Assembly (NCBI GenBank): GCA_963832165.1
Contig: CAWHTE010000005.1
Coordinates: 96,001-160,000, forward strand
Direction of reading: 5' to 3'
Origin: an uncultured delta proteobacterium
GTDB lineage: Bacteria; Myxococcota_A; UBA9160; SMWR01
DNA length: 64,000 bases
Positions 1,826 to 25,407 of the stretch are shown here, in pieces (position 1 is the stretch's first letter; each line of letters begins with the position of its first letter). A program made the position numbers and the translations under genes. The notes under the pieces were generated by a model. The model was not told the origin of the DNA and did not search any database. It saw only the letters and a program-made list of their open reading frames with translations.

Positions 1826-2467
1826 CTACGACTCTGGCGGAGGTATGGCCCCCTGTGCGGCTGTGCTCTCGCCCGGGCCACCCTTGAACACGGCCTTCTC
1901 GAGCGCCTCGAGCCGCCGGATCAGATCGCGGATCACGTCGGGCGACGGTCCTGCACTCGGTGCTGCGGCACTCGCGGGCGCGCCCGGCGGACCCGCACCG
2001 CTTGCGACCTTCGTATAGACGGCGACGCGATCCACGATCTCGTCGAGCTTCGGGATGATGTCGCCCATCGTGCCGCTCTGGATGAAGATGCGCCGTGCGG
2101 CGGCCGCCTCGGCTTCGCTCTTCACATCGAGCGGCAGGCAGTGCACGTCGAGGCTCGCGCCATCGCCGAACTGCGTGAACGCGCCGAAGATCAGATAGTC
2201 GCCGCCGCGCGCCTGGCCCCAGTCGAGCGCCTTCTTGAGCACCGTGGTGGCCGCGCCGGGATCCTCCACGCGTTCCACCTGCACGCGCCCGGTCTGCTCG
2301 AGGCGCGAAGAGATCATGTCGGTGATGCCGCGGCTCACGTAGCCGGGATTCGACGCCGCGGTGTGCACGACGATCGGCAGAATCACGATCCGCGTGCGAT
2401 CGGCCGCCGACGCGCTTCCGCTGAGCAGCAGCGCTCCCATGAGAGCCAGAACCTGCGCGACCCGCAT
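1826..2467 (-). CDS. Exported protein with CsgG/TolB-N-like alpha/beta domain
   Basis: Signal peptide ending SASA; pattern IVILPIVV...GITDMISSRL...DYLIFGAFTQFG...SLDVH resembles CsgG/TolB-N folds; Ala/Pro linker and short coiled-coil tail. Confidence 0.55.
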   Translation of the reverse strand: MRVAQVLALMGALLLSGSASAADRTRIVILPIVVHTAASNPGYVSRGITDMISSRLEQTGRVQVERVEDPGAATTVLKKALDWGQARGGDYLIFGAFTQFGDGASLDVHCLPLDVKSEAEAAAARRIFIQSGTMGDIIPKLDEIVDRVAVYTKVASGAGPPGAPASAAAPSAGPSPDVIRDLIRRLEALEKAVFKGGPGESTAAQGAIPPPES

Positions 2468-2485: not shown

Positions 2486-4155
2486 TCACTCGGCGTTCGG
2501 CTCGCGGGCGTCGAGCGGCAGACGCACCAGGAACGCCGCCCCGCGCCCCTCGCGGCTCGTCACCTCGATCGTGCCGCGGTGATCGGTCGCGATCCGGTGG
2601 CACACCATCAGGCCGAGGCCCGTGCCGGCGTCGGGGCCCTTCGTGGTGAAGAATGGATCGAAAATCAGCTCGAGGTGCTCGGGCTTGATGCCCGGGCCCC
2701 GTGTCTCGCACCTCGATCTCCACGCCGTTGCCGTCCGGGGCCGGGCCCGTGCGCACGATCACCTCACCCTCGGGCGGCGTGACCGAGAGCGCATTCAGCA
2801 CGAGATTCAGCACCACCTGGTGGATCTGATCGCGCGCTGCGACGATCTTGGGCGTCGCGGACTCCGCGCGCAGGATCAGGCCCACGCGGCCGAGTTCCGC
2901 CTCGCGGTGCAGCAGCGTCACGACTTCGCGCGCCACTTCGTCGGGCCCGAACGTCTCGTACGAGATCCCTCCAGCGCCGGCCTGCCCGAGCCGGCGCATC
3001 GTGCGCAGCAGCTCGCGGATGCGATCCACTTCCTTCACCGTCAGCGCGTGATACTCGCCCCAGAATTCGAGGTCGGCCTCGGCGCGCTTCGCGGGCGCCA
3101 TCGCGAGGAACGTGTTGATCGCCACGAGCGGATTGTTGATCTCGTGCGCGAGACCCGCGGCGAGCATGCCGAGCGATCCGAGCCGGTCGGCCCGCCGGAT
3201 CTGTTCGCGCGAGCGGCGCAGGTCTTCGACGAGGCGCGCGTTCTCCACCGCGATCGACGCCTGATTCGAGAGCCCCTCGATCAGCGTGATGTCGTCGGCA
3301 GTGAAGCGCCGGCCACCGCGGCGGTTGTCGACCGTGATCGCGCCCATCAGGCCGTCCTTGCCGAACAGCGGCGAGACGAGGATCTCGTCGGCCGCGACCT
3401 CCGATAGCCACTGCCGCACCACGTTCGAGTACTCGAGCAGGTGCTCGCCGCGCAGCGTGAGCGACATGCCGTCCTCGAGCCGCGAGACGAAGTCGTGCGC
3501 GTTCTCCACCGTGAACTTGAAGCGCTGCAGGCGCGAGGTCGATCTCGTCGGGCACCGAGGGAAGAACCCACTCGAGGGAGCGGTTCTTCGGGTTGCGCAG
3601 CAGGAGATTCGCGCCGTCGTAGCCGAGATCCCTGCGCATCGTGGCGAGGATCAACGCGAGCAGCCGATCGAGCTCGAGCTCGCGGTTGAGCATTCCCGAC
3701 ACGCGGTTCAGCACCGTGAGCTCGTTCAAGAGCTGCGAGCGCTCGCGATCGAGCGCGTAGGCCTCGATGCCGCGCAGCAGCGTGGCGCGCACGTCCTCGG
3801 GGTTCCACGGCTTCGGGATGAAGCGGTAGATCGACCCGTTGTTGATCGCGTCCTGGAGCGTTGCTGCATCGCCGTAGGCCGTGACCATGATCCGGATCGT
3901 CTTCGGATCGATCTGGGCCGCGCGCGCGAGGAACTCGGTGCCGGTCATGCCGGGCATCCGGTGGTCCGAGATCACCACCGCCACGGGCTGGGTGTTGATG
4001 ATCTCGAGGCCCGCTTCGCCGCTCGTGGCGGTGACGATGGAGAACTCGCGCCGGAACGTGAGCTCGAAGATGCGCAGGTTCTCGGGCTCGTCGTCGACAT
4101 AAAGGATCGGATACTCGCGCGGCTCGCGGAGCATCTCGGGGTTAGGCCGCATCAC
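2486..4155 (-). CDS. REC-GAF-HisKA-HATPase hybrid signalling protein (PhcR-like position); two apparent frameshifts near 3540 and 2692
   Basis: REC (ILYVDDE, VVISDHRMPGMTG, FIPKPW) in ORF 2764..4155. GAF end and H-box (LAHEINNPL) plus N-box in ORF 2481..3509. Removing one G near 2692 restores [32 protein letters not shown], ending in TGA at 2486-2488. Confidence 0.85.
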
Positions 4156-7021
4156 GCCCCTCGCCGTTCGAGCCGGGGTGATCCGGCAGCGGGAAGCGCA
4201 TCACCACGCGGGCGCCTTCGCCGTGGACCGAGCCGATATCGAGCGATCCGCCGTGCTCTTCCATGATCCGCCGGCTGATCGAGAGCCCGAGCCCTGAGCC
4301 CCGGCCGACCTTCGTGGTGACGAACGGCTCGAACAGCCGGTCGCGCACCTCGGGTGCCACGCCCGGACCGTCGTCCCGGATCTCCACGAGCACGGCGCCC
4401 TCCTCGGTGCGGGCCGTCACCCAGACGGATCCGGCCCCGCGCTCGGATTGTTCGAATGACTCGACCGCATTCTTGAGCAAGTTCAGGAAAACCTGGTTCA
4501 GGGCGCGCACATCGCCGCGGATCTGCGGGAGCCCCTCGGGGATATCCGCATGGATCTGGACCCCAGCCGACGTCAGCGTGTGACCCATCAGGCGCAGCGT
4601 CGTGCGCAGTCCGCGCGCCAGGTCGACCGGCCCCCGGTCGCGGGACCCCGGTGCAGCGAAGTCGCGCAGGTCGCCCACGAGCGCCGCCGTGCGGTCGAGC
4701 CCCTCGGTGACGATGTCGGTGAGCTCGGTGAGCGTGGCCGCGCTCTCGTCGAAGCCGAGCTTCGTGCGCAGCGCCTCGAGTGCATCGATCTGGCGGCGCA
4801 TCGCATCGGTGTCGCCCGGGTCGATCGCAGCCACCTGCTCGGCCACCTTGCGCACGTCAGCGACCACCGCGCGCAGCGTGCGGGCCGCGTTCATCGCGAA
4901 GTTCACGGGGTTGTTGATCTCGTGGGCGACGCCGGCCGCGAGTTCACCCACGGCCGCGAGCCGTTCTGCGTGGACGAGCTGAGCGCCGGCCTGCTTGAGC
5001 TCCTCCATCGTGGCCATGAGCTCTTCGTTCGTGGTCTCGAGCAGCGAGTTGCGCACCGCGAGCTCCTGCTGCGCGTGGCGCAGCCGGACGAGGGATCGCA
5101 CGCGTGCGAGCAGCTCGCGCGGATGGAACGGCTTGGTGACGTAGTCGTCCGCGCCGTGCTCGAGCCCCTGGATCTTCATCTCGCGCTCGGCCTTCGAGGT
5201 GACGAGCACCACGGGCACGCTCGCGAGCGCCGGGTCGCGCTTGATCTCCGCGCAAAGCTCGATACCCGTCATCTCGGGCATCATTACGTCGGTGAGCACG
5301 AGGTCGGGCGCATGCGCGCGCGCGGCCTCGAGGCCCTCGCGTCCGTTGCGCGCCACGCGCACGCGGAACTCCTGTCCCACCAGGTGGTGGAGCAGGCGCC
5401 GCATGTCGACGTTGTCCTCCACCAGCAGCACCTCGGGCGTACCGGGCGGATGGTCGGGATAGTTCGGCCGCGTCTTGCGCTTCCACTGCCCTTCCGCGCG
5501 CTCGACGTTCCGCTCGAGCTCCACGTACTTCATCTGTTCCCGCAGATGGCCATCATCGCTGGCATCGCTGTCGGTGCCTTCGCTCGCCTCGCCGTCGGGC
5601 TCGTCCTGGCGGAGCTCCGCTTCCATTCCCGCAATCGCGCTGCGCAGTGCCGGTGAGAGCTCTGCCGCATCGATCGCCTCGGACACCGCGTCTTCTGCCG
5701 CGTCGCTCTCGCCTGCGGGCAGCACCACGTGGATCTGCGCGCCATGTCCGAGCCCGTGGCTCTCCGCCCAGACGCGCCCACCGTGCAGCTCCACGAGCTC
5801 CTTCACGAGCGCGAGCCCGATCCCCGTGCCTTCGTATCGGCGCGTGTTCGAGCCATCGACCTGCGCAAAGCGGTCGAAGATGCGCTCGAGCTGGTTCGGC
5901 GGGATCCCCGCGCCGGTGTCCGCCACGACGATGTGTACACCGCCTTTCCCTTCGTGCACACCGTGCACCCGGATCGCGCCGCCACCGTCGGTGAACTTCA
6001 GCGCGTTGCCGAGCAGATTGACGAGGATCTTCTCGAACGCCTCGGGATCGGCGTGGATCTCGGGCAGCTCCTCGAGCCCCTCCACTTCGAGCCGCACGCC
6101 TTTTCGTTCCGCGAGCGGACGCGCGCCCGAGATGATCCCCTCGCACACCTCCGCGAGCCGCACGGGCCGCCGCCGCACCTGGAGCTGTTGGCTCTCGATC
6201 TTCGCGAGGTCGAGCAGGTTGTTGATCAGCTTGAGCAGCCGAAGCCCGTTGCTCTGCACGGTTTCCAGATAGCTTTGCTGCATCGGGTTGAGCTCGCCGA
6301 ACTCTCCACCCAGCATCGCCTCTACCGGTGCCAGCGTGAGCGTGAGCGGAGTGCGCAGCTCGTGGTGGATGTTCGCCGTGAAGCGCGACTTCGCGGCGTC
6401 GAGCTCTTTCAGCTCGTCGCGCGCGCGCTCGATCTCGCGGCGCTGCAGGAAGTCGGAGAAGCGCATGCGATCCAAAAGAGCGCAGGCGACAACACTCTCT
6501 GCACCCGCCGCAAGTGGAAACGCCAAAGCGAGCAAATAGGCGTGCCAGCTTAGAGCAGCAGACTCAGTAATCGGAAGTGCACCTAACCCCACAACAAGTA
6601 CAGCAACGATTCCGGCCGCTTGCATTGCTGTAAGCGGAAGCAATACGGGCATTCCCAGGAACAGCAGCATCAGGCCCGGCGTGTATTGCCCACCGGCCCC
6701 TCCCACAACCCCAATTACTTCCAGCAGCATCCATCCCGCGCAGAGCACGCCAACGATGCAAGACGCCTTGGGGTATCGGCTTGCTGTAAATGTGGCGATC
6801 GCAATCATTACAAGATCGCAGGCGACTCGTACCCAAAGCATGCGCAGGAACAGTTCTCGAAAGACGAACCAATCCAATGCCATGAACGCCGTGGTAAATG
6901 CGGCGACGATAAGCGCACCGTTCCGCGTCGCTCGCGGCAGTTCCGCTAGCTCAACGTGCGCGCGATATTCGGCGTAGGCGGATCTGGCCTGGCGGTCGAT
7001 GATACCCATCGCCTCCGCCAA
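4142..7021 (-). CDS. Membrane hybrid sensor kinase: multi-TM sensor, HisKA-HATPase, REC, second HisKA-HATPase
   Basis: About 5-6 hydrophobic segments in the first ~185 aa; NIHHELRTPL, NLLGNALKF, DTGAGI, GTGIGL; REC (LLVEDN, DLVLTDVMMP, YVTKPF); second AHEINNP, NLLKNA, DDGPG, GSGLGL. Confidence 0.93.
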   Translation of the reverse strand: MAEAMGIIDRQARSAYAEYRAHVELAELPRATRNGALIVAAFTTAFMALDWFVFRELFLRMLWVRVACDLVMIAIATFTASRYPKASCIVGVLCAGWMLLEVIGVVGGAGGQYTPGLMLLFLGMPVLLPLTAMQAAGIVAVLVVGLGALPITESAALSWHAYLLALAFPLAAGAESVVACALLDRMRFSDFLQRREIERARDELKELDAAKSRFTANIHHELRTPLTLTLAPVEAMLGGEFGELNPMQQSYLETVQSNGLRLLKLINNLLDLAKIESQQLQVRRRPVRLAEVCEGIISGARPLAERKGVRLEVEGLEELPEIHADPEAFEKILVNLLGNALKFTDGGGAIRVHGVHEGKGGVHIVVADTGAGIPPNQLERIFDRFAQVDGSNTRRYEGTGIGLALVKELVELHGGRVWAESHGLGHGAQIHVVLPAGESDAAEDAVSEAIDAAELSPALRSAIAGMEAELRQDEPDGEASEGTDSDASDDGHLREQMKYVELERNVERAEGQWKRKTRPNYPDHPPGTPEVLLVEDNVDMRRLLHHLVGQEFRVRVARNGREGLEAARAHAPDLVLTDVMMPEMTGIELCAEIKRDPALASVPVVLVTSKAEREMKIQGLEHGADDYVTKPFHPRELLARVRSLVRLRHAQQELAVRNSLLETTNEELMATMEELKQAGAQLVHAERLAAVGELAAGVAHEINNPVNFAMNAARTLRAVVADVRKVAEQVAAIDPGDTDAMRRQIDALEALRTKLGFDESAATLTELTDIVTEGLDRTAALVGDLRDFAAPGSRDRGPVDLARGLRTTLRLMGHTLTSAGVQIHADIPEGLPQIRGDVRALNQVFLNLLKNAVESFEQSERGAGSVWVTARTEEGAVLVEIRDDGPGVAPEVRDRLFEPFVTTKVGRGSGLGLSISRRIMEEHGGSLDIGSVHGEGARVVMRFPLPDHPGSNGEGRDAA

Positions 7022-7087
7022 TCGACCAATCGCGACTAATACTTAAGCCACGCTTCTGCGCGTGGCTCGCACGCGCACGGAGCCAGT

Positions 7088-9556
7088 CTACGGCCGGCGT
7101 GCGCTTACGATCACTGCTTGAGGGGGGTCGCCAAACCCTTGCCCCGCCTGGACTTCTACGAATCCCGCGTTCGCGACAGCAAAGCGAAGCTCCGATTCCT
7201 CCCAAAACCGGAAGCGCCCACTCTCCTCAAGATCAAGTAGCCGCGAACCATCGTTCAGAAAGTCACGCACAAGAGAATCAAAGGAGCTATCAACCGCCCT
7301 GCCGAGCAAAGTTCGGGCCTCAGGAGTCGCGTACTCGAGAAGGCCATCGTGGAAAAGCATCGTCGCGTCCGCATCCTGCACCATTGACGATAGAACTACG
7401 CGCCCACCAGGCATGAGAACTCGGTAGATCTCGCGAAGCAGCCGCTCAGGGCTCTCTACGTAGCTGATCAGCAGAGATGCGATTACTGCGTTGATTGACC
7501 CACTGGCGAGCGGAATCGCCATTCCTCTTCGGAGATCTAGGTTGCCAACACATTGCGTCGTCAAAACTTCACATTGCTCTTGTGTTGGATCCCTCCGCGA
7601 CCTAGCGCGAATCAGTGCATCCCGAACGAAATCGACCTCGATCACCTTGGCTCGTTTAGGCCCGAGGCCTCCGCGTAGACCTACGGAGAACTCGCCCGTC
7701 CCGGCTCCGAGATCCGCAACCCGCTGACCTTCTGCAAGCTGAAGCATCCGGACCTGCGCTTCCATGAAGTTTCGATAGGCGGCTGTTGCCGTAAGCAACT
7801 CCATACCTACGATACGACTTCGACCCAGCAGGTAATCCGCCCAGAACGCTCTCACATCAGGCTGCGCCAACGGGATTCTCGCCAGCTCCGCAGCGCGGGC
7901 GGCGGCAACGCGGGTGACTCGAGGCAGAACGCCGCTCTTCCGCTCGCCCAACGCCATCTCGCTGACCTCTTCCGCGATCAACTGAAATGTCGCAAGAGCC
8001 TTGTGCCCACTCCGCAGCTGGTGGCCAGTCGGAACTTCGATAATCCGCCTAGTCTCCGTGGGCCCGCACGACATGATCTCAATCACGCGGTTGAGATCCA
8101 TCCAGGCATCGTGTCGCCCGTGGATCCACGTGATCGGAATCTCGATGTGCGCCATTTCTCTCCGGGCGTCTTCCAGGAAGCCAATTCCGTTCTCTATCGC
8201 GTCCAAGCCCGTGTAGTCCATGTCAGCGACGACACCGGCTAGTTCGTGTCGACCAAATTTCATTCCTTGAAGCAGGCCACTTCCGAAGTCAATCCCACCG
8301 GAAATTGTCCTGAGCGCGGAATGCAAGTCAGCCATTCCGACGATTGAAACCCATCCGGAGACCCTATGATCGCGGGCGAGAGCATGCCTTGCTTCGACCG
8401 CGGCAAGGCTGAAAGTGACAAGGATGATCTTCCTTGGGGCCCGCGCTTGGTCGCTCAACAAGTAATCGACGGTTGCTGAGATATCCCGAGCCGCCTGCGA
8501 GAAGGTAAAGCGGAGATATTCGTCACCGGGCTGACGACAGTCTTGGTCAATGTGGGACTCTCCGCGCCGGTTAGTCCCGTCGAATCGAATTACCCGAATC
8601 GGCTCCCCGAGTCTTCGGAACGACTCCACGAGCGTCATCGCTAAAGGAAGCATCGTTTCCTTGGTGCGCCCCCACGCGGGTGGAATTATCACGCCAACAC
8701 CGTTCGAGTGCGCCCCCCATCTGTTCTCAATCGCACGAATTGACTCGCCTCGCTCGTTCTCGTACTCGACGACGTGCACCCGGTGCCGTCGCCTGTTAAT
8801 CGCGAAGCCCGCTTTCAGAGCAAGTGCGCTAACGCCCGCACGCGCAAGCTGCATCGTTTCGCGAACTGTCGGGCCACGACCGAGAATCTGATCTCGGCGG
8901 TCAACGTTGAGTAGCTCGCTCGTTGGGACGCTGCTTACTGACAGACCAACCTTCAACCATCCGGGCCGAGTGCTATCGGCGGTCCGATGACGGACGCGTC
9001 CAAATGCCGGCTCTCCCTCGTGACCAACTCGGAGCTCGATTTCGAGAGGAAGGCTCTCCGCCAAAGCCTGAGGCATCCGAATCCCAATGCCATGACGTGT
9101 CCGGTCCATCACCTCGACTTCGGACCATCTGCTTGGGGTTCCGCTCTGAATCATTACCCGGCGCGGATCCGCGTGACTCCGTCCGAGATCACGCCGCTCG
9201 GCGCGATAGACGGACCGGGGAATCGTTGCTCGCAGCGTTCGCGCTCCCACTGCGGAGACGGCTGAACATGCGAAGAAATACTGGGTACCGGCAAGCTCGA
9301 GGCTAAAGAAGAGCTGGGAGTTGGCATGTAGGCTGATGTTCGTCACGGCGAGCAACAGCGCGTTCAAATCGACGTGGAGAATCCTCGCTGTTCGGTCAAT
9401 CCCTGCGTTCAGCACACTTCCTTCTTGCGCTGCACGTTCCAGGATCGCCCGCACTTCGGTGGGATTCGAAATAGAATCCCGGTGGAGCGCTCCAAAGGTC
9501 TCGCTCGCAATGCGATCGAGTCTCTTCGTCGTCTCACCGCCTCTATGCGGCGACAT
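7088..9556 (-). CDS. Fusion protein: PilZ-type region + LuxD-like alpha/beta-hydrolase (acyl-ACP thioesterase) + class I SAM methyltransferase
   Basis: PilZ motifs RRDLGR (RxxxR) and DRTRHG (DxS/TxxG). Hydrolase: IRFDGTNRRGES, nucleophile elbow VTFSLAA, GRHDAW, TGHQL. Methyltransferase: VADLGAGTG, IEVDF, IPLASGSINAV, EIYRVLMPGGRVV. Confidence 0.8.
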   Translation of the reverse strand: MSPHRGGETTKRLDRIASETFGALHRDSISNPTEVRAILERAAQEGSVLNAGIDRTARILHVDLNALLLAVTNISLHANSQLFFSLELAGTQYFFACSAVSAVGARTLRATIPRSVYRAERRDLGRSHADPRRVMIQSGTPSRWSEVEVMDRTRHGIGIRMPQALAESLPLEIELRVGHEGEPAFGRVRHRTADSTRPGWLKVGLSVSSVPTSELLNVDRRDQILGRGPTVRETMQLARAGVSALALKAGFAINRRRHRVHVVEYENERGESIRAIENRWGAHSNGVGVIIPPAWGRTKETMLPLAMTLVESFRRLGEPIRVIRFDGTNRRGESHIDQDCRQPGDEYLRFTFSQAARDISATVDYLLSDQARAPRKIILVTFSLAAVEARHALARDHRVSGWVSIVGMADLHSALRTISGGIDFGSGLLQGMKFGRHELAGVVADMDYTGLDAIENGIGFLEDARREMAHIEIPITWIHGRHDAWMDLNRVIEIMSCGPTETRRIIEVPTGHQLRSGHKALATFQLIAEEVSEMALGERKSGVLPRVTRVAAARAAELARIPLAQPDVRAFWADYLLGRSRIVGMELLTATAAYRNFMEAQVRMLQLAEGQRVADLGAGTGEFSVGLRGGLGPKRAKVIEVDFVRDALIRARSRRDPTQEQCEVLTTQCVGNLDLRRGMAIPLASGSINAVIASLLISYVESPERLLREIYRVLMPGGRVVLSSMVQDADATMLFHDGLLEYATPEARTLLGRAVDSSFDSLVRDFLNDGSRLLDLEESGRFRFWEESELRFAVANAGFVEVQAGQGFGDPPQAVIVSARRP

Positions 9557-9699
9557 TCGTTCCTACCGCATCGTCTTGGCGAGAGACTGTCCGGGATCCC
9601 CGTACATGGCGGCCCATATATTCTCACGGCGGGGGGCCGGAAACGGTCTCTTTATACTACGCCCGTCTGAGCTTTCCAAGGCATCGGCGTCGGATCCCG

Positions 9700-12600
9700 C
9701 TAGGGAGCCTCGCGCAGTATCCGCTGCTCGAGGTTCCCCATACCGAGCGCCCTAGCTTGCTGCAGTGCCAGGCTCCAGTACTTCCGCCCGCTGCCCACAC
9801 GGTTCTGATCCAGCATCGAAGCGTTGTCAGCATACGTGTGCGCCAAGGCCGGGCCTGCTCCTGCCGCTCGATTCGCGACGATTGCCCTACGAAAGTGAGC
9901 CTGAGCGGTATTCCATTGACACATCAGGCCGGCTAGTACACCAAGGAATCGGTCGGTTGATCCCCAGCAGAAGCTGCTAAATCCCACGACCGCCATTTGT
10001 CCCGCAAAGCGCTCCCACAGGGAATACAGCTCGCGGACAAGCGCAGGAGACTCGAGCACTCGGCACGCTAGCGTCAGAGATCCTAGCGTCCCGAACCACG
10101 CGTTTCGTGGAAAGCTGCTCAGTGCACCTCTGGCAATAGCCGCCTCCATAACATCGCGTGCTTCATCAAGCTTTCCGAGTTCGCAATAGAGATAACAAAC
10201 ACCAGCCTGCCAGCCCTCTACTCTCGGAAAATCCGATGCGATTGCGACTACTGCGGGTTCAATCTCCTCCAAACCTCCCACATCAATCGCGGCCATAGCA
10301 CGCTGCAAAGCAAAACTGTGAAGCGCGTTCCGATCGTCAACCGCTAATCCCTGCCGTAGGAACTCCTCGCCATGCTCACGTGCCGCTGCATAATTCCCTC
10401 TCATTAGCGCGATAGTTGCCTGTAGCATCCCGACATACCAAGCGGCGCTCGGCCTGCGAGTTCGCTGAATCAAAGCTCCGAATCCACCAATCTCAATATC
10501 AACCTCACGCATCTCGCCAACCTGCCAAAGCGCAGTAATCCGGAGAATCGTCCGGAGGAGCGCCGTAGATCCATCCTCTGTATTAGCCGATGTGGATCGA
10601 CGAATGTGCTCATGCGGTGTTTCAACAGAATACAAGGCCAGGCTGCCTGCAGTCCTTGCGAACGAAACCATCTGCAAGTCTTCTCGCGCCTCAGCTGCGA
10701 CAATCGCTTCTTTTACAAGAGCCTTGAGTCGCTCCCGAGGCTCGTCGGACCAGTGAAGCGCCACAGCAAGTCTCGCAAGTATTCGCGGTCGCTCCCGCGC
10801 GTCGGCTGGAAGCTTTCCGAGCGCACCCTCAAGTAGCCCAACCAAGTCGCGGTCGTAGACCCCCGTCTCAATTGCCAATAGGTCCGGAGCAAACGACAGT
10901 GCAGCTCTAGCGCCGAGGTCAGGTCGCTTGCAGTGCTCCGCCAACCGAGCAGCTTCGATTAACGCGTTGCGTGAACTCTCGCGATTCCCAGCGAACCCGT
11001 ACGCCAAGCCCCGCTCCAAGCACAATTCACAGCGCAGCTCGCTGTCCTCTGGACACAGACGTTCCAAGAGGACGACCGCACGCTCGAGATGAGCCGCAGC
11101 TGAGTCGAATGCCGCCCGCTCAATGTCCCACCGAGCGGCACGTATTAAGTAGCTAATCGCCTTAGCGGCAATCGGAGTCGGATACGCGGCTGCGAAATGG
11201 CGCGCAATCTCAGCACTTAGGGGACCAAGCTCTACTCCAGCCATTTCCTCCATAGCGAGAGCGATGCGCCCGTTGTTCTCAGCGCGCTCCGCCGCCGTGA
11301 GCGACGCGCAGACAGCCTCTCTAACCAAGGCATGCGCGAATCGATAGTGACCGACTTCGTCGTCGTTTACACAAATGCCATGGTCTATTGCGACTTCGAG
11401 ACCGGCAAGAACTCGCGATGCATCCATCGCCAACGCATGCTCCAAGAGACCAGCAGAGAACTCTTTTTCAATCACGGCAGCCATTGCCAACAGACCCTTG
11501 ACGCTGGCGGGCAGCAACTCCGTCTGCCTCATTATTGAATCTCGAACTCCGCGCGGAATTGAGTACTCAAGAGGCTGCGCTGTCGTTAGAGATTCAAGGC
11601 GACCCGCATTCTCAAGTACATTCAGTACTTGCAAGACGAAGAATGGGTTTCCATTAGTCTTCGCGAGAAGGTCTCTCACCGCCTCAGCGCTCGGTTGAGT
11701 CCCCACGCGACGCTCGGTGATGATCGCCACATCGTTCGCACATAGACCCCCGAGCGTGATCAGTTCCGCACCTCGCGACCGGAGAACTGACGACACCATC
11801 CCGACACACTTTTGATAGCTACTTCCATGCGTCCTAAAAGTCCCAAACAGAAGCACGTGAGATCCATTCAACTCTGCTGCGAGATGCTGAAATAACAGCC
11901 TGGAAGCCTGGTCCGCCTCATGCAGATCATCGAGGAAGATCGCGATGGGCCCCAGCGATGAGAGCTTCCTAACGAGGGTCAGAATGCTCTCGAAGAGCCT
12001 ATGACGGGATGCTCGCGCGTCGTCCGTCGGACTACTTGCGGAGGGTGAGACTACTTCTTGCAGTTCGGGAAGAACCCAGGCGACCTCCTCAGCTCCATTG
12101 CTCATCGTGTGCACGATCCATTCTCGAGACTCACCTTCTACGAGCTGACGAAGTACCTGAGTCCACGGCCAAAGAGCCGGCGCTTCATCAGTGCCTACGC
12201 ATCTGGCGGATCCCACGCGGAAACCGCGATCGCTCGCGTGAGTTGCTGCCTGCAATAGGGCGGTCGTCTTTCCAATGCCGGCTTCACCAGTTGCAAGGAT
12301 CGTGCGATAGCCACCCGAAGCAGCATTGCTAAGCGAACGCTCCACAGATTCTAGAAATGACTCGCGTCCGAGGAACGAATGATCATCCTGAGTTCGCGAG
12401 CTTCTCTCTGCACGATCGAGCCGAACCAAAGCCGGTTCGACTTGCGCCACAAACTGCAGGCCATTCCCCCGAACTGTCCGAATGATTTGCTGAGCGTGTC
12501 CGGTGTCTCCAATGGCCCGTCTGACGGCGTGCACTGCAAAGCGAAGCGCCTGCTCGTTTACACGCACCCCCTTCCACACGGTGCGGTGAAGTTCCTCGCG

Positions 12601-12759
12601 CGAGACAACTCGGTTTCTGTTGTCGATCAGGTAGAACAGCAGGTCGAGTGGCCTTGCCTGAAGCTGTACTACACGTCCTCGCCGCAATAACAATCGTTCT
12701 GATCTGGAAAGTTCGTACTCGCCGAATCGAACGACAGCGACGTCCTCAAACGCGTTCAT
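9700..12759 (-). CDS. Transcriptional regulator: OmpR-type winged helix + STAND (AAA_16) ATPase + helical/TPR-like region
   Basis: N-terminal RFGEYEL...LDLLFYLIDNRNRVVSREEL...IIRTVRGNGLQF; Walker A GEAGIGKT; Walker B IFLDDLHEAD; TNGNPFFV; YRFAHALVRE. Start placed at ATG 12759 rather than 12828. Confidence 0.88.
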   Translation of the reverse strand: MNAFEDVAVVRFGEYELSRSERLLLRRGRVVQLQARPLDLLFYLIDNRNRVVSREELHRTVWKGVRVNEQALRFAVHAVRRAIGDTGHAQQIIRTVRGNGLQFVAQVEPALVRLDRAERSSRTQDDHSFLGRESFLESVERSLSNAASGGYRTILATGEAGIGKTTALLQAATHASDRGFRVGSARCVGTDEAPALWPWTQVLRQLVEGESREWIVHTMSNGAEEVAWVLPELQEVVSPSASSPTDDARASRHRLFESILTLVRKLSSLGPIAIFLDDLHEADQASRLLFQHLAAELNGSHVLLFGTFRTHGSSYQKCVGMVSSVLRSRGAELITLGGLCANDVAIITERRVGTQPSAEAVRDLLAKTNGNPFFVLQVLNVLENAGRLESLTTAQPLEYSIPRGVRDSIMRQTELLPASVKGLLAMAAVIEKEFSAGLLEHALAMDASRVLAGLEVAIDHGICVNDDEVGHYRFAHALVREAVCASLTAAERAENNGRIALAMEEMAGVELGPLSAEIARHFAAAYPTPIAAKAISYLIRAARWDIERAAFDSAAAHLERAVVLLERLCPEDSELRCELCLERGLAYGFAGNRESSRNALIEAARLAEHCKRPDLGARAALSFAPDLLAIETGVYDRDLVGLLEGALGKLPADARERPRILARLAVALHWSDEPRERLKALVKEAIVAAEAREDLQMVSFARTAGSLALYSVETPHEHIRRSTSANTEDGSTALLRTILRITALWQVGEMREVDIEIGGFGALIQRTRRPSAAWYVGMLQATIALMRGNYAAAREHGEEFLRQGLAVDDRNALHSFALQRAMAAIDVGGLEEIEPAVVAIASDFPRVEGWQAGVCYLYCELGKLDEARDVMEAAIARGALSSFPRNAWFGTLGSLTLACRVLESPALVRELYSLWERFAGQMAVVGFSSFCWGSTDRFLGVLAGLMCQWNTAQAHFRRAIVANRAAGAGPALAHTYADNASMLDQNRVGSGRKYWSLALQQARALGMGNLEQRILREAP

Positions 12760-12897
12760 GAATTCATTATCCCATGCGAGCCGTTCTTCTAGTTGCCCCG
12801 AGGGGCACGGGGACTTCCGAAACAACAAACTGCTAACGAATCGCCGGAGGCGCCAAGTCTATGCTCCTCGTCACCCCAGAACGCCGAGGACGGCCTA

Positions 12898-14151
12898 ATG
12901 CAGCTCACTGAACGCAGCCGGGTCCTAGTCGCTGACCCCATCAGAGAGAACCGTGGAATGCTCGTCGAGACCCTCTCCTCGTGCGGAATGTCATGCATTG
13001 AAGCTGTGGACGGAGTATCTGCTTGGCGGTGCTTTACGGCAGATAGACCAGACCTCGTCTTGGCAGCCTTGCAGCTTCCTGGTCTAACTGCCCTTGACCT
13101 ACTCGCTCGCATTCGCGACGTCTCGACCACCCCATTCGTCGTTCACGCTCCCGCCGGCGAAATTCCCGCCGCCATCACTGCAATCCGCCGTGGTGCCGCC
13201 GATGTCATTCCCTTCCCTTGTCACGCGGACGAGCTATCCACCCGAATTAAGGCCGCGCTTGCGACTAACCCCGAACGCCGTCGCCGGACAGAAGCACCCG
13301 AATCGTTTGCAGGGCGAAGCCAAGCAACCTCGCGGATCCGAGAGCAAATCAGAGCGCTCGCTGGCTTGCGAATTCCAGTTCTGTTCTGTGGCGAAAAGGG
13401 TACCGGTCGCGACCACGCAGTTCGCTGCCTCGCACAATTGGACGGCGTGGGTGCGAATGATCTATTCAAAGTGTCGCCTGTTACCGGACGCCCCCTAACT
13501 CGCCATGAGGCATCAAAAGCAATCTACATCGATGAGATAGAGCGGCATTCTCGAGTAGACCAAGCCTACTGGTGCGAACGAATCAGCGACTCCGAAAGGG
13601 CCGCACAGGATGCTCCTCGGAGAGTCATCGTTTCAACGAATTCTGATCTAGACAGACTCTCGAGGCGAGACGAGTTCGATCCCAAGCTCGCCGGGATCCT
13701 CCTCCGCTTCGTGGTCAACATTCCGCCGCTTCGCGCTCGCCGTGAGGACCTAATTCCCCTTGTAGAGAGTCTCGGACTTCACGCCTCGCGCCGAATAGGG
13801 CGACCGAATACCAGATTCACTACACCTGCGCTGAAGCTATTGCAGCAACAAACATGGCCGGGGAACGTGTCTCAGCTCGCAGCGCTCATTGAGAAGCTTG
13901 TTGCATTTTCTCCCGACGGCTTGATCACTAGACGCCTCGTCTCGGCCCTGATCGAGGAAGCGCCAACGGGTGTCCCTTCGCTCCGCCGGAATGCGCTACG
14001 CCTTCAGCGCGACGAACTCCTCGCAATCCTCGACCAGACCGGCGGGAACCTCGCAGAGGCGGCTCGACGCATGAATATGAGCCGCGGCGCGGTGATCTAT
14101 CGCGCGCAGAAGTTTGGCCTGCTGGCGAAACGCGTGCGCGCGAACCCCTGA
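12898..14151 (+). CDS. Atypical NtrC-like regulator (pseudo-receiver, degenerate sigma54 AAA+, Fis-type HTH)
   Basis: REC-like N-terminus; GEKGTGRD, YIDEIE, IPPLRARREDL, WPGNVSQL; C-terminal GGNLAEAARRMNMSRGAVIYR. GAGGA RBS precedes ATG 12898. Confidence 0.85.
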   Translation: MQLTERSRVLVADPIRENRGMLVETLSSCGMSCIEAVDGVSAWRCFTADRPDLVLAALQLPGLTALDLLARIRDVSTTPFVVHAPAGEIPAAITAIRRGAADVIPFPCHADELSTRIKAALATNPERRRRTEAPESFAGRSQATSRIREQIRALAGLRIPVLFCGEKGTGRDHAVRCLAQLDGVGANDLFKVSPVTGRPLTRHEASKAIYIDEIERHSRVDQAYWCERISDSERAAQDAPRRVIVSTNSDLDRLSRRDEFDPKLAGILLRFVVNIPPLRARREDLIPLVESLGLHASRRIGRPNTRFTTPALKLLQQQTWPGNVSQLAALIEKLVAFSPDGLITRRLVSALIEEAPTGVPSLRRNALRLQRDELLAILDQTGGNLAEAARRMNMSRGAVIYRAQKFGLLAKRVRANP

Positions 14152-14152
14152 A

Positions 14153-15160
14153 TCAAGCCCCTGCGAGAGGGACCTTTCGCACCTTCACACCCGCCTCTCG
14201 CAGTAGATCGAGTGACGTCTGACCTAGCGGGTAGTCGGCGTTGTACACAACTTCGGTGAGGCCGGAATTGATGATCATCTTGGTGCAGATCAGGCAGGGG
14301 CTGAAGGTGGTGTAGAGGGTCCCGCCCTTCACCAGGACCCCGTGATAGGCGGCCTGGGTGATGGCGTTCTCCTCGCCGTGCGAGCACAAGCACTCATCGA
14401 GGCGGGTTCCGCCTTCCGCGAAGCTATTGCAGCGCGGACAGCCGCCCTCGTTGCAGTTGAGCGTGCCGCGCGGGGTTCCGTTGTAGCCCGTGGAGATGAT
14501 GCGGCGGTCGCGCGTGATCACGGCGGCCACCTTGCGCTTCACGCAGTTGCTGCGCGACGCCACCACGCGCGCAATGGCCATGAAGTATTCGTCCCAGCTA
14601 GGTCGTTCAAAAAAAAAGGAGCGCTCCAGCTGCGCCTGCACCTGGGCGTGTAGCTCAGCGAGCGTGCCGTCGTTACTCAGCGTGGTGTCGGCGAGCGCAT
14701 GCACGGCGAGGAGCTGTTGCGCGGCGGGGTCGGCGCCGCCGAGCTCGCGGCCCTCGAGCTCGCGCAGCTGTTCGAGCGTCTGCGGATCGCCGCCGCGCCC
14801 GCGCGCGCGCATGCGTGCTAGGCGAACGTTTTCGTCGGCGTCCACCCACCAGAGCTGGAAGCGACTCGTGCGCGCGCGCAGCACCTCCACCTCGGCAGGG
14901 TGGCGCACGGAATCGATCACGTAGTTGCGGTCGGGCAGCAGCTGTTCGGCGAGCAGCGTTGCCAGGCCACCGGGCCCGCGCGCCTGCCGGATCGCATTAC
15001 CGGCATCGATCATGCGCTCGCGCGTCTCTTCCTGGCCTTGGCGCCGCAGCTCGTCACGGATCACATCGGACAGCGACAGCGCGTAGAAGCTGCGCGACTG
15101 AAGGAAGGCGAGCACCTCACCCTTGCCGGCGCCGTTGCGGCCCGAGAGCCCGATGATCAT
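14153..15160 (-). CDS. P-loop kinase-like domain fused to dCMP/deoxycytidylate deaminase
   Basis: N-terminal IIGLSGRNGAGKGE, VIDSVRHPAEV; C-terminal RPSWDEYFM, TGYNGTP, SHGEENAI, SPCLICTKMI (Zn-binding H-x-E / PCxxC). Confidence 0.92.
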   Translation of the reverse strand: MIIGLSGRNGAGKGEVLAFLQSRSFYALSLSDVIRDELRRQGQEETRERMIDAGNAIRQARGPGGLATLLAEQLLPDRNYVIDSVRHPAEVEVLRARTSRFQLWWVDADENVRLARMRARGRGGDPQTLEQLRELEGRELGGADPAAQQLLAVHALADTTLSNDGTLAELHAQVQAQLERSFFFERPSWDEYFMAIARVVASRSNCVKRKVAAVITRDRRIISTGYNGTPRGTLNCNEGGCPRCNSFAEGGTRLDECLCSHGEENAITQAAYHGVLVKGGTLYTTFSPCLICTKMIINSGLTEVVYNADYPLGQTSLDLLREAGVKVRKVPLAGA

Positions 15161-15282: not shown

Positions 15283-17217
15283 GTGACCGTGACCATGACC
15301 TGTGACCGGATCTGTCACACCCGTCCCGCACGATGGAAGCTGCCCCGGTCCCGGGGAGTGAGCATCGTGGTCGACGGAAGCGGAAGCGCGCTGAGACGAG
15401 CGCGCTCGCGAGTGCCGACGTTCGAGACGGTCGCGCGATCGCGGGTCGCACCGCGGCTGCTCGGGATCGAGCCGCGCCGGTCTCCGCCGCCCCGGTCCGA
15501 GGATCTGGATGCGGAGCTCTACCAGCTAGCGCACTCGGCCGGTCCGCTCCGGCGCGCTCTCGCGCGGGTGGCCGGGAGATTGGTGGCCGTGCGCGGCTGG
15601 GAGCGGCTCGGCTTTGCGCGGCTCGCGGATTACGCGGTCGAACGTGCCGGAATCTCGCCGCGCGAGCTGCGAGACCTCGCCCGCGTCGATCGTGCATTCG
15701 AGTCTCTGCCGAGGCTCGAACAGGCCTTCCTCGCGGGTGAGATTGGCTGGACCGAGCTGCGCCTGCTGTGTCGCGTGGCGCAGCCCGACGACGAACGCGA
15801 GTGGCTCGCGCGCGCCTCGCGCCTCACCGCGTCAGCACTCGCACGCGAGGTGCGCCAGGTGGATCGACGCGCGCGAGAAGCCTCCGCGGGGATCGGCGCA
15901 CCCGAGGAAGACGATGAGCGCAGCGTTGGCGTGATCGTTCGCTGCACACCGTCGGTGCGCGCGCGCTGGTGGCACGCGCGCCAGGTCGCCAATCGCGTCG
16001 CGGGGCACACGCTCTCGGCCGGCGCGTTCCTGGAAGCGGTGACGGCCGAGGTGATCTCCGCGGTCGGGTTCCAGGGCGAGTCATCCAACGACTCCAAATC
16101 GGCGCCGCCGGCGATGAGCCACGAAGACTTCGAGCTGTCACGCGCAGACGCCAAACGAGTGCCACCCCAGGCGCCGCTCCAGCCCGGCCCACCTCCCCCA
16201 TTCATCACCTCACTCACGCACGACATCGAGAACGCGGATCCCTTCGAACTCGATGCGCGCCTGCGCCGCGCCGTCCGCCGTGAAACGCGCCGCCTCGCTC
16301 ATCTGGCCGCCCGGCTCGAGCAGGCCGTCGTACTCGGGCTCCCGCGTGCCATGGGATTCGCAAGCCTCGACATCTACGCCGAAGAGCGCCTGGGCATCGC
16401 CGCAAGCCGCGCGCGCGCATTGTTGAGGGTCTCGCGCGCGGCTTCCGAATGCCCGCCGCTTCGCAAGGCCTTCGCCACGGGTCGGCTCTCGTGGGTGCAG
16501 GCGCATGCGCTCGTTCCGCTTCTATTCGAGACCGCCACCCGCCGCTATCGCGAAGCCTGGGTTCTTCACGCCGAGCGCGTGAGCGTGCGGCGCCTGTCGG
16601 ACGACATCGAGCGCGCACTCGGCACCGGAGTCTTCGAGCCTCCGTCTCTCGCGCCGCCGCCTTGTCCGTCGGACCCCGTCGATCTCCAAATCGGTGCCAT
16701 CACACACCCGCCCTCGGATCGAGAGCACCCCGTCCCCCAGACCGAGCGGGTGCGCTTGTTCGTCGCCGCCTCGCTCGAGGTGGCCCACCTGTTCCGCGCG
16801 GCACTCGCCATCGTGCAGCGGAGGCTCGAGCACCTCCGGCGACGCCCCGCCTCCCAAAGCGAGGCACTCGAAGCGATGCTCGCGCACGCGGTCGCCACCT
16901 GGGTCGCGCAGGATCCCCACGATCACGCGCTGCGCGACCACCGTGTCTTCGAGCGAGACGGCTGGCGCTGCACCGTTCCGGGCTGCTCGTCCTACCGCAA
17001 CCTCCACGGACACCACATCGTGTTCCGCTCCCAGGGTGGTACCAACGCACTCAGCAACCTGACCACGCTCTGCTCGTGGCACCACCAGCGCGGTGTTCAC
17101 GGCGGCGTCATCTCCTGCTCGGGGCGGGCTCCCCATGCGTTGCATTTCGCGCTCCTGCTCCGCCCTAACCACCTGCCGCTGCTCTGTTATGGCCCGGGGG
17201 AGGTGCGCATGGGCTGA
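15283..17217 (+). CDS. DUF222-like domain HNH endonuclease (start uncertain)
   Basis: C-terminal VFERDGWRCTVPGC...LHGHHIVFRSQGGTNALSNLTTLCSWHH; two copies of a GFA-x-L-x2-YA-x-ER-x-GI helical domain. The true start may be ATG 15333 with a frameshift near 15490. Confidence 0.8.
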   Translation: MTVTMTCDRICHTRPARWKLPRSRGVSIVVDGSGSALRRARSRVPTFETVARSRVAPRLLGIEPRRSPPPRSEDLDAELYQLAHSAGPLRRALARVAGRLVAVRGWERLGFARLADYAVERAGISPRELRDLARVDRAFESLPRLEQAFLAGEIGWTELRLLCRVAQPDDEREWLARASRLTASALAREVRQVDRRAREASAGIGAPEEDDERSVGVIVRCTPSVRARWWHARQVANRVAGHTLSAGAFLEAVTAEVISAVGFQGESSNDSKSAPPAMSHEDFELSRADAKRVPPQAPLQPGPPPPFITSLTHDIENADPFELDARLRRAVRRETRRLAHLAARLEQAVVLGLPRAMGFASLDIYAEERLGIAASRARALLRVSRAASECPPLRKAFATGRLSWVQAHALVPLLFETATRRYREAWVLHAERVSVRRLSDDIERALGTGVFEPPSLAPPPCPSDPVDLQIGAITHPPSDREHPVPQTERVRLFVAASLEVAHLFRAALAIVQRRLEHLRRRPASQSEALEAMLAHAVATWVAQDPHDHALRDHRVFERDGWRCTVPGCSSYRNLHGHHIVFRSQGGTNALSNLTTLCSWHHQRGVHGGVISCSGRAPHALHFALLLRPNHLPLLCYGPGEVRMG

Positions 17218-24494: not shown

Positions 24495-25407
24495 GGCCAC
24501 CGAGCCGCCCGCGCACCTCGGCCACGCCATCGATCGCTCGCTCCGGCGACTCGGCCACGGCCATCACGTTGAAATCGCGCGCACCCGCGTCGCAGTACGG
24601 CGCCAGGAAATCTGCAATCCGCGCGGGCTCGCCGTACGGGCAGTACTTCTCGAATCGCTCGAAGGGAATCCGATACATCCCTTCCATTACTCGGGAAAGT
24701 CGCTCGCGCGCCGCCGCGCGATCGGCGTCGAGCCCCACCCATACCTGGAGCCCGTGCCGCCACGCGACGCCGCGCCCCGCCCCTTCGGCCTCCACCTCCG
24801 CGCGCGCCTCCGAGAAACGCCGCGGCGAGCACCACACACCGAGCCAGCCATCCCCGAGTCGGCCCGCGCGGCGCAGCGCGGCGCTCGAGCGTCCACCCAC
24901 CACGATCGGCACGGGCGGGTCCGGTGCGGGCCGGATCCAGGCCTGCTCGAACGCGAAGAACTCGCCCTGATGACTGACCGGCTCGCCGCGCAACAACGCG
25001 CGCAGCGCCGCGAGCGACTCGTCGGTGCGGCGCCCGCGCGTCTTCGGATCGACGCCGCAGATCTCGATCTCGCGGCGATCCTCTCCGCCGACGCCCACAC
25101 CGAGCACGAGCCGGCCCGGCGCCGCCTCGCACAGCGTCGCGATCTGGCGCGCCACCGTCACGGGATGCCGCAGCGCGAGCAGGTACACACCGATGTGCAC
25201 GGCGATCTCGGGTGCGAGTGCCGCGATCATCGCCGCCTGCACGAGCCCGTCCATCCCGAAGCCCGTGTGGAAGCTCACGTGGTCGGCCACGAACACGTGG
25301 TCGAGCCCCGCGCCCTGCGCGCGCAGCGCGAGTGCCCGCCGTGTGTCGAGCGGCCCGACCTCCACGTGGATCCCGACGCGCACGCGCTCCTCGCGCTCGT
25401 GCGTCAC
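24487..25407 (-). CDS. LLM-class flavin-dependent oxidoreductase
   Basis: GLDHVFVADH, RHPVTVARQIATL, GRLVLGVGVG, PIVVGGRSSAALRRAGRLGDGW; GTG 25407 overlaps the upstream TGA. Confidence 0.88.
   Translation of the reverse strand: MTHEREERVRVGIHVEVGPLDTRRALALRAQGAGLDHVFVADHVSFHTGFGMDGLVQAAMIAALAPEIAVHIGVYLLALRHPVTVARQIATLCEAAPGRLVLGVGVGGEDRREIEICGVDPKTRGRRTDESLAALRALLRGEPVSHQGEFFAFEQAWIRPAPDPPVPIVVGGRSSAALRRAGRLGDGWLGVWCSPRRFSEARAEVEAEGAGRGVAWRHGLQVWVGLDADRAAARERLSRVMEGMYRIPFERFEKYCPYGEPARIADFLAPYCDAGARDFNVMAVAESPERAIDGVAEVRGRLGGHA

Follow-up and report, generated by a model that had tools for sequence, protein, structure and literature searches.

The locus described here lies in a 64,000-nucleotide stretch of contig CAWHTE010000005.1 (positions 96,001 to 160,000; assembly GCA_963832165.1), from an uncultured delta proteobacterium of the Myxococcota_A lineage SMWR01. 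This whole stretch is referred to as the window. Three genes follow one another in a single orientation on its minus strand: a multidomain enzyme with an S-adenosylmethionine (SAM) methyltransferase, a hybrid sensor kinase with a six-transmembrane (6TM) input domain and two histidine kinase modules (HK1 and HK2), and a kinase with REC and GAF domains, here called gene 3 (Table 1). The original prediction, made without database searches, had read them as three co-oriented, closely packed genes of a lipid-signal circuit laid out like phcB, phcS and phcR of Ralstonia. The packing is as described, with a gap of 66 bp between enzyme and sensor, and a gene 3 start (4155) that overlaps the sensor's stop by 14 bases. 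The enzyme is a putative signal synthase, and the sensor its candidate receptor.

Table 1. Features of the locus and its surroundings, in window coordinates.
Feature	Position	Strand or source
Putative signal synthase, 822 aa: PilZN/PilZ region, LuxD-like thioesterase, class I SAM methyltransferase	7088..9556	-
PilZ-type region of synthase, aa ~15-215	8912..9514	-
LuxD-like alpha/beta hydrolase of synthase, aa ~258-540	7937..8785	-
SAM methyltransferase of synthase, aa ~565-822, DLGxGTG at 615-621	7091..7864	-
Hybrid sensor kinase, 959 aa: 6TM input, HK1 (H220), REC (D578), HK2 (H700)	4142..7021	-
Six-helix membrane input domain of sensor, PhcS-homologous by sequence, MASE8-like, adenylyl-cyclase/ImcA 6TM fold, within low-GC block	6422..7021	-
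REC-GAF-histidine kinase (gene 3), PhcR/LvrB-like layout plus GAF, two frameshifts in assembly	2486..4155	-
Low-GC variable block, dCMP deaminase gene to sensor's kinase core	6450..14150	GC scan
Winged-helix/AAA (STAND-type) regulator, co-oriented, upstream of synthase, within low-GC block	9700..12828	-
Degenerate REC-AAA-Fis regulator, divergent, within low-GC block	12793..14151	+
dCMP deaminase fusion gene, conserved upstream flank	14153..15160	-
Multi-copy HNH-domain gene beside dCMP deaminase gene	15283-17217	+
TolB_N-like gene, conserved downstream flank	1826..2467	-
tRNA-Met, just downstream of TolB_N-like gene	1720-1796	-
tRNA-Thr call	25049-25139	-

A search over 8000 candidates recovered 392 homologues of the synthase (E up to 0.001), and the best 120 of these 392 all score above 650 bits. 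The alignment used below comprises 104 of the best 120, with 16 shorter or partly covering ones left out. The structural model (predicted local distance difference test score, pLDDT, 89) places two beta-rich N-terminal domains before a hydrolase and then a methyltransferase. The predicted thioesterase-methyltransferase fusion is thus borne out in both of its domains, but the earlier description had missed a PilZ-type N-terminal region of about 200 aa, whose best matches in the Atlas are PilZ clusters. RxxxR (R122, R126) and [D/N]xxxxG (D151, G156) are kept in all 104 aligned homologues, of which 88 also fit the strict pattern [DN]x[SA]xxG; the window's protein has T at the S position. We take RxxxR and [D/N]xSxxG on a beta-barrel to be the motifs of PilZ proteins that bind cyclic di-GMP (c-di-GMP). 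This region is the least conserved part of the synthase (mean column identity 0.46), and the window's genome has 11 GGDEF matches over the cut-off. Judged from its motifs, synthase output is probably gated by c-di-GMP.

LuxD is a myristoyl-acyl carrier protein (ACP) thioesterase. It is the top Foldseek match of the hydrolase part (PDB 1THT, E 2.5e-13, 16% identity), with esterases and acyl-peptidases ranking closely behind; the match of its family, PF02273, to the synthase is weak and falls below the gathering cut-off (E 0.03, 13.9 bits against 20.3). The part has a LuxD-like alpha/beta hydrolase fold with a Ser-Asp-His triad, and S383, D483 and H512, the putative catalytic residues, are invariant throughout the alignment. 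The methyltransferase domain matches Pfam at E 2e-12 and its SAM-motif glycines are likewise invariant (104/104). Its nearest solved relatives are of the UbiE-like, MitM, RebM and CmoA types.

The sensor has HisKA and HATPase domains twice plus REC, arranged as membrane region, HK, REC and HK. Its best NCBIfam match is the LvrA model (331 bits against a cut-off of 1200), and NCBIfam held no meaningful model for the input domain. The latter models as six helices (pLDDT 95) that match AC5, ImcA and another membrane adenylyl cyclase (6R3Q) with Z scores of 14-16 over 184-194 residues. With Foldseek, no match to this model passed E 0.001; ImcA and Rv1625c ranked best. MASE8 (PF20968) does not match the window's domain, is found at E up to 0.1 in 7 of 42 family members, and is listed for 24 of 32 longer homologues; its profile had no match in the window's own genome or in controls.

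A profile built from 42 input domains retrieved 2108 representatives at E up to 0.001. When 20 representatives were looked up, five clusters had names: one 'sensor histidine kinase PhcS', three generic histidine kinases and one ATP-binding protein. A Joint Genome Institute (JGI) protein named 'sensor histidine kinase PhcS' matches the profile at E 2e-21. The PhcS comparator was a Paraburkholderia orthologue, not the Ralstonia protein, and was reached only via an intermediate homologue; querying plasmids by tblastn with the input domain of the window itself returned nothing at E 10. It is encoded in a plasmid operon of Paraburkholderia graminis, made up of a methyltransferase, a kinase and two receivers, which is identified as phc because its last gene (WP_114158450.1) is listed as a PhcQ homologue in Fig S1 of PMC6989110. 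The orthologue has 445 aa and an H-box at H233, near H230 of Ralstonia PhcS. Against it, the profile scores 73 bits over 192 positions, compared with at most 9.6 for 500 shuffles, -0.3 for the reversed sequence and 0.1 for MMPL membrane proteins. HHalign assigns a probability of 97.7%, and the orthologue is identical to the profile consensus at 50 of 201 positions. Given the distance of the 73 bits from the shuffled and reversed scores, the suspected likeness of the sensor to PhcS holds, and on this sequence comparison the two input domains are homologous.

Some further observations concern the comparator and the search for phcS. The P. graminis operon is on a conjugative plasmid, with a cyclopropane-fatty-acid synthase gene just upstream (L093:523-1545) and a 134-aa receiver in place of phcR. 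A phcS primer given in Table S4 of PMC6989110 was scanned in metagenome contigs and had two chance matches, in unrelated genes.

The synthase, in contrast, does not hold up as the counterpart of PhcB. The PhcB-like protein of the P. graminis operon aligns to it only across the SAM core (119 columns). Against that protein, the thioesterase profile scores -1.8 bits and the PilZ profiles at most 2.3 bits, both within the range of shuffles. Because nothing aligns beyond a common SAM core, the synthase is not PhcB, and the label 'PhcB homologue' was rejected. PhcB-named proteins were absent from the 120 methyltransferase matches listed, which is a weak test.

We favour, with moderate confidence, a lipid-signal circuit akin to Phc, in which the synthase is new and probably gated by c-di-GMP and the predicted signal is a methylated fatty acid. 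The same circuit might run on other chemistry: the LuxD-like domain could act as an acyltransferase onto an amine or alcohol, with the SAM domain methylating N, C or a hydroxyl, such that the signal would be something other than a fatty-acid methyl ester. The Pfam family of LuxD is indeed named 'acyl transferase', and the methyltransferase, with the nearest solved relatives listed above, has no special link to PhcB. However, no acceptor-making gene recurs beside the synthase, its upstream neighbours encode fatty-acyl tailoring enzymes, and the sensor has a methyl-ester sensor as a relative, which together make this variant unlikely.

The neighbourhood also bears on the lipid-signal reading. 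The survey covers 54 synthase loci, mostly from metagenome-assembled genomes titled Myxococcota or Deltaproteobacteria; sensor adjacency was judged in the 40 with at least 3 kb downstream, and the tallies of MMPL, gene 3, STAND and dCMP deaminase genes were counted by hand. A sensor of the same family lies within about 3.7 kb downstream of the synthase in 39 of these 40. In the remaining locus (L054), a hybrid kinase with a weak input match is directly downstream. Among distant synthase homologues (912-1112 aa), the sensor directly follows in 7 of 8. An arrangement kept in 39 of 40 loci is not due to chance, and the expectation that synthase homologues would be conserved beside such kinases is confirmed.

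The upstream scan took in 52 of 98 candidate open reading frames (ORFs), picked by closeness to the synthase. Fatty-acid tailoring genes occur upstream in 12 of 54 loci, comprising desaturases (four loci), P450s (three), cyclopropane synthases (two), an acyl ligase plus B12 radical-SAM protein (two) and a diiron oxygenase (one). LolA-like proteins occur in four loci, and many other upstream ORFs are unrelated genes. MMPL proteins are a transporter and exporter family, and an MMPL gene is adjacent in 28 of 40 loci. The window's own MMPL orthologue is elsewhere in the genome (G000:C7:342256-344560; L055:8173-10464); it is 45% identical to the cassette MMPLs, nested in their clade, and has resident codon use (GC content at third codon positions, GC3, 0.92). 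Beside it, acyl-ligase-like and TetR-like ORFs can be read from the sequence. No PhcQ-like gene was seen in the synthase loci, and no lux genes recur near the synthase. As assigned, the neighbouring genes point to fatty-acyl chemistry and export.

These neighbours bear on two rival explanations. The sensor might eavesdrop on foreign lipids, which the enzyme would hydrolyse or methylate as a quenching or detoxifying step. The esterases and acyl-peptidases close behind LuxD in the fold search would suit this idea, as would an input domain related to a sensor of fatty-acid esters, but the fused methyltransferase, the exporter, and the ACP and acyl-ligase neighbours (L041) point to synthesis, and we regard it as distinctly improbable. 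Alternatively, the product could be a structural or defensive envelope lipid, exported by MMPL and LolA-like proteins, with the kinase monitoring its own membrane as feedback rather than receiving a signal from other cells. MMPL, LolA-like, cyclopropane synthase and desaturase genes are typical of envelope lipid pathways, and synthase distances correlate more strongly with those of MMPL (rho 0.76) than with those of the input domain (0.42). Against this stand the patchy occurrence of the family, found in 14 of 41 relatives and 22 of 201 genomes of a phylum sample (both counts include the window's own genome), and the repeated exchange of input plus enzyme, which resembles the agr and phc specificity groups. 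An envelope role is therefore considered improbable.

A number of the surveyed loci show features of their own. A same-family sensor lies upstream of the synthase in L007 (508-3309; the only one seen there, where downstream DNA is short), and L019:4076-6670 is a second copy, also upstream; such an upstream sensor is possibly a second receptor. Four ORFs near the synthase have no Pfam match at E 1e-4 (L025:7504-9807, L028:6062-8392, L020:8159-9118 and L027:3199-4077) and could be further tailoring genes or spurious frames. Eleven loci (L003, L007, L009, L016, L017, L024, L031, L035, L039, L042 and L052) carry titles outside Myxococcota and Deltaproteobacteria, such as Spirochaetales and Acidobacteriota; since the usual flanking genes are found in some of them, mislabelling or misbinning may be involved.

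The signal-circuit reading gains from the mosaic structure of the sensor gene. A block from ~6450 to ~14150 has a GC content of 0.584, against a genome mean of 0.696 (standard deviation 0.019), and is one of only 5 among 2187 genome scan windows as low. Its boundary falls inside the sensor gene, at the junction of input and kinase: GC3 jumps from about 0.5 to 0.87 near codon 180 (0.59 for the input, 0.86 for HK1), and DNA homology to three same-genus genomes ends at 6432-6472, the start of HK1, and in the same-genus genome G001 at 6767. Compared with G003, HK1 is 75% identical and the input 36%. Input GC3 is at least 0.12 below that of HK1 in 14 of 40 sensors, and the reverse never occurs; this comparison leaves aside L007 and L050, whose best matches are not the adjacent sensor parts. 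No convincing repeats bound the block, and searching phages with sensor-kinase DNA from a relative yielded short pieces only. Neither this cassette structure nor the MMPL exporter had featured in the original prediction.

Contigs of same-genus genomes break at the same junction and, in G005, also at the end of the dCMP deaminase gene; the ends concerned are the end of C264 in G004 and the start of C161 and end of C39 in G005. Breaks of this kind would be expected if strains carry different cassettes. Neither the G004 nor the G005 assembly yielded the synthase.

Tree comparisons agree with this partition. In tests with 1000 replicates, fewer than the program advises, the input alignment has a log-likelihood (lnL) deficit of 81 on the synthase tree against 217 on the core tree (n = 18), and of 127 against 608 (n = 37). 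HK1 behaves in the opposite way, at 232 against 27 and 538 against 149, respectively. In partial Mantel tests (n = 18), the input correlates with the synthase given the core (0.37, p 0.017) and hardly with the core given the synthase (0.05), whereas the values for HK1 are 0.43 with the core and -0.31 with the synthase. In the larger set (n = 37), there is also a correlation between the input and the kinase tail of the same sensor (0.30, p 0.002). Where an MMPL gene lies between the two genes (n = 19), the input favours the synthase tree over the MMPL tree by 79 lnL (approximately unbiased test, p 2e-5). Over 25 loci, which add six with MMPL upstream, the partial correlation is still significant (0.36, p 0.001). 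Thus, the input domain tracks the synthase tree while the kinase tracks the flanking genes, and input and enzyme appear to have been swapped together between lineages.

Such a pattern could in principle reflect linkage alone, with the input riding along on transferred DNA, the conserved kinase serving as the first recombination anchor, and no ligand relation between enzyme and sensor. Same-genus homology does stop at the start of HK1, and G001 is discordant, as detailed below. Yet enzyme and sensor genes remain adjacent through several gene orders, in 39 of 40 loci and in 7 of 8 distant ones; where an MMPL gene lies between them, the input follows it less closely than it follows the synthase. 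Linkage as the sole explanation is thus highly improbable.

Gene 3 has a looser place in the system. It has REC, GAF, HisKA and HATPase domains, which, with the overlap onto the sensor's stop, agree with the prediction. It is not a single ORF but spans three frames, with breaks near 3520-3535 and 2700. Relatives mostly have a single ORF of about 552-561 aa. Frameshifts were found in 5 of 105 other loci probed in the same genome (gene 3 and its antisense match left out), so the assembly does contain indels, but two in one gene exceed that rate (about 0.07 expected, by our estimate), and gene 3 may be decayed rather than misassembled. No RNA run was among the public sequencing runs listed as matching, and three DNA runs sharing 6-9% of words did not resolve its frameshifts. 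The gene is present in 23 of 37 loci. Both an intact third gene and an obligatory three-gene operon were accordingly rejected; what survives of the proposed PhcBSR-like order is the adjacency of synthase and sensor, with a PhcR-like third gene that is optional and, here, broken.

Other genes of the block and its flanks can be described briefly. A STAND regulator occurs in 16 of 54 loci and the dCMP deaminase flank in 22 of 54; the STAND regulator travels with the cassette, and its GC3 is below that of HK1 in 12 of 13 loci. The divergent REC-AAA-Fis regulator apparently has a receiver without the phospho-accepting Asp and a shortened AAA part, and has a counterpart, 34% identical, at the same position in G001. 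Going by these residues, its output is possibly independent of phosphorylation. Copies related to the HNH-domain gene are present at several sites in same-genus genomes. A sigma-54 promoter pattern gave chance-level matches only, none of them upstream of the synthase.

In the proposed circuit, the LuxD-like domain would take an acyl chain off ACP or coenzyme A via S383, as its fold and triad suggest, and the SAM domain would methylate this chain; the carboxyl is the simplest site, and the product would then be a methyl ester, as with PhcB. Binding of c-di-GMP to the PilZ region, in keeping with its conserved motifs, may gate output in either direction. The MMPL transporter, here represented by the orthologue elsewhere in the genome, is predicted to export the product, which would then be bound by the 6TM domain and set HK1. 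A relay from H220 to D578, modelled on LvrAB, could control HK2 and, where present, the REC-GAF-kinase. Finally, enzyme, optional tailoring genes and sensor input would pass between lineages as a single block, leaving the kinase core in place, and this exchange could create lineage-specific signal types.

A number of observations weigh against this circuit. The 6TM family is attached to many unrelated kinases, as its 2108 representatives attest, and the fold also occurs on ImcA; being so widespread, it is not by itself a sign of a lipid ligand. The methyltransferase scores 24-26 bits against the PhcB-like protein and 60-78 against generic methyltransferases; with a likeness to PhcB that does not exceed that of generic enzymes, carboxyl methylation is proposed by analogy. 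The window has no adjacent exporter or tailoring gene, and its gene 3 is broken. In G001, the input is 58% identical to that of the window and the synthase only 38-46%, which breaks the pairing. Congruence is also incomplete: when set against the input's own tree, the synthase tree is rejected by the input alignment, and nearest neighbours of input and synthase agree in only 18 of 37 loci. With the six MMPL-upstream loci included (n = 25), the preference for the synthase tree over the MMPL tree falls to 23 lnL and is not significant (p 0.12). Lastly, the loci share ancestry, and the significance suggested by the p-values is consequently overstated.

A broader view can be offered only tentatively: that this is a widespread, undescribed lipid language of uncultured myxobacterial lineages and beyond, in which a c-di-GMP-gated thioesterase-methyltransferase produces tailored (desaturated, hydroxylated or cyclopropanated) fatty-acid esters for PhcS-type receptors, and in which enzyme, tailoring gene and receptor head move as a single cassette with its break inside the kinase gene. 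No description of this synthase-sensor system was found in the literature searched, with most subscription journals and bioRxiv supplements outside the search. On this broader view there would be lipid pherotypes whose production depends on the motile or sessile state, and the adenylyl-cyclase-type 6TM fold would gain dozens of ligand-receptor pairs from nature. If the circuit is real, Phc-type lipid-ester signalling would not be confined to Burkholderiaceae but would also occur in an uncultured Myxococcota lineage, where a synthase of another, self-contained kind would tie second-messenger state to signal output. Natural pairs of synthase and receptor with varied tailoring enzymes would make the ligand specificity of this fold testable in E. 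coli, and biotechnology might profit from a single gene that leads from acyl-ACP to methyl esters.

Parts of the locus resemble several known systems. The hydrolase shares its top fold match and an invariant Ser-Asp-His with LuxD (1THT, PF02273), but is fused to PilZ and methyltransferase domains, is 16% identical and stays under the Pfam cut-off. LvrA and LvrB of Leptospira likewise pair an HK-REC-HK kinase with a following REC-HK kinase, both without DNA-binding domains (PMC5863495); LvrA, however, is cytoplasmic with a PAS input, and the word 'methyltransferase' is absent from the main text of that paper. The six-helix design also likens the input, as a design, to CqsS/LqsS and to adenylyl-cyclase-type 6TM domains. 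CqsS and LqsS are lipid-signal sensors that share this design and have known lipophilic ligands (PMC4821796), although their signals are hydroxyketones; for the adenylyl-cyclase membrane domain, the account in PMC12414865 has no modulator mapped. As an analogy only, the hypervariable region of agr in Staphylococcus aureus covers the genes that make the signal together with a portion of the sensor gene (PMC10482373), even though its signal is a peptide and its proteins are unrelated. The cassette mosaic parallels both agr and the specificity groups of Ralstonia phcB/phcS.

The closest comparison is with Phc itself (phcB-phcS-phcR-phcQ; Ralstonia, Cupriavidus, Paraburkholderia). Both have a methyltransferase gene directly before a membrane kinase, a homologous input domain, often a gene of REC-kinase layout after the sensor, and a synthase and sensor that vary together. 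According to PMC8578825, Ralstonia PhcB and PhcS sort by the type of signal, whereas the grouping of PhcR and PhcQ is that of the phylotypes; PMC13532016 describes how PhcS perceives its ester as unresolved. In contrast, the window-type synthase shares homology with PhcB in the SAM core only and has PilZ and thioesterase domains in addition, and its loci are linked to an MMPL exporter and tailoring genes, with no PhcQ-like gene seen and an optional gene 3 that carries GAF. The likeness that had been seen to PhcS does not extend to the overall layout of the sensor: PhcS has membrane, dimerisation and kinase domains only (TMD-D/PAD-HK), with one kinase, whereas the window's sensor has an additional REC-HK. 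Since its synthase and its sensor layout both depart from those of Phc, the system is not a member of that family, though it would be Phc-like in the way it works.

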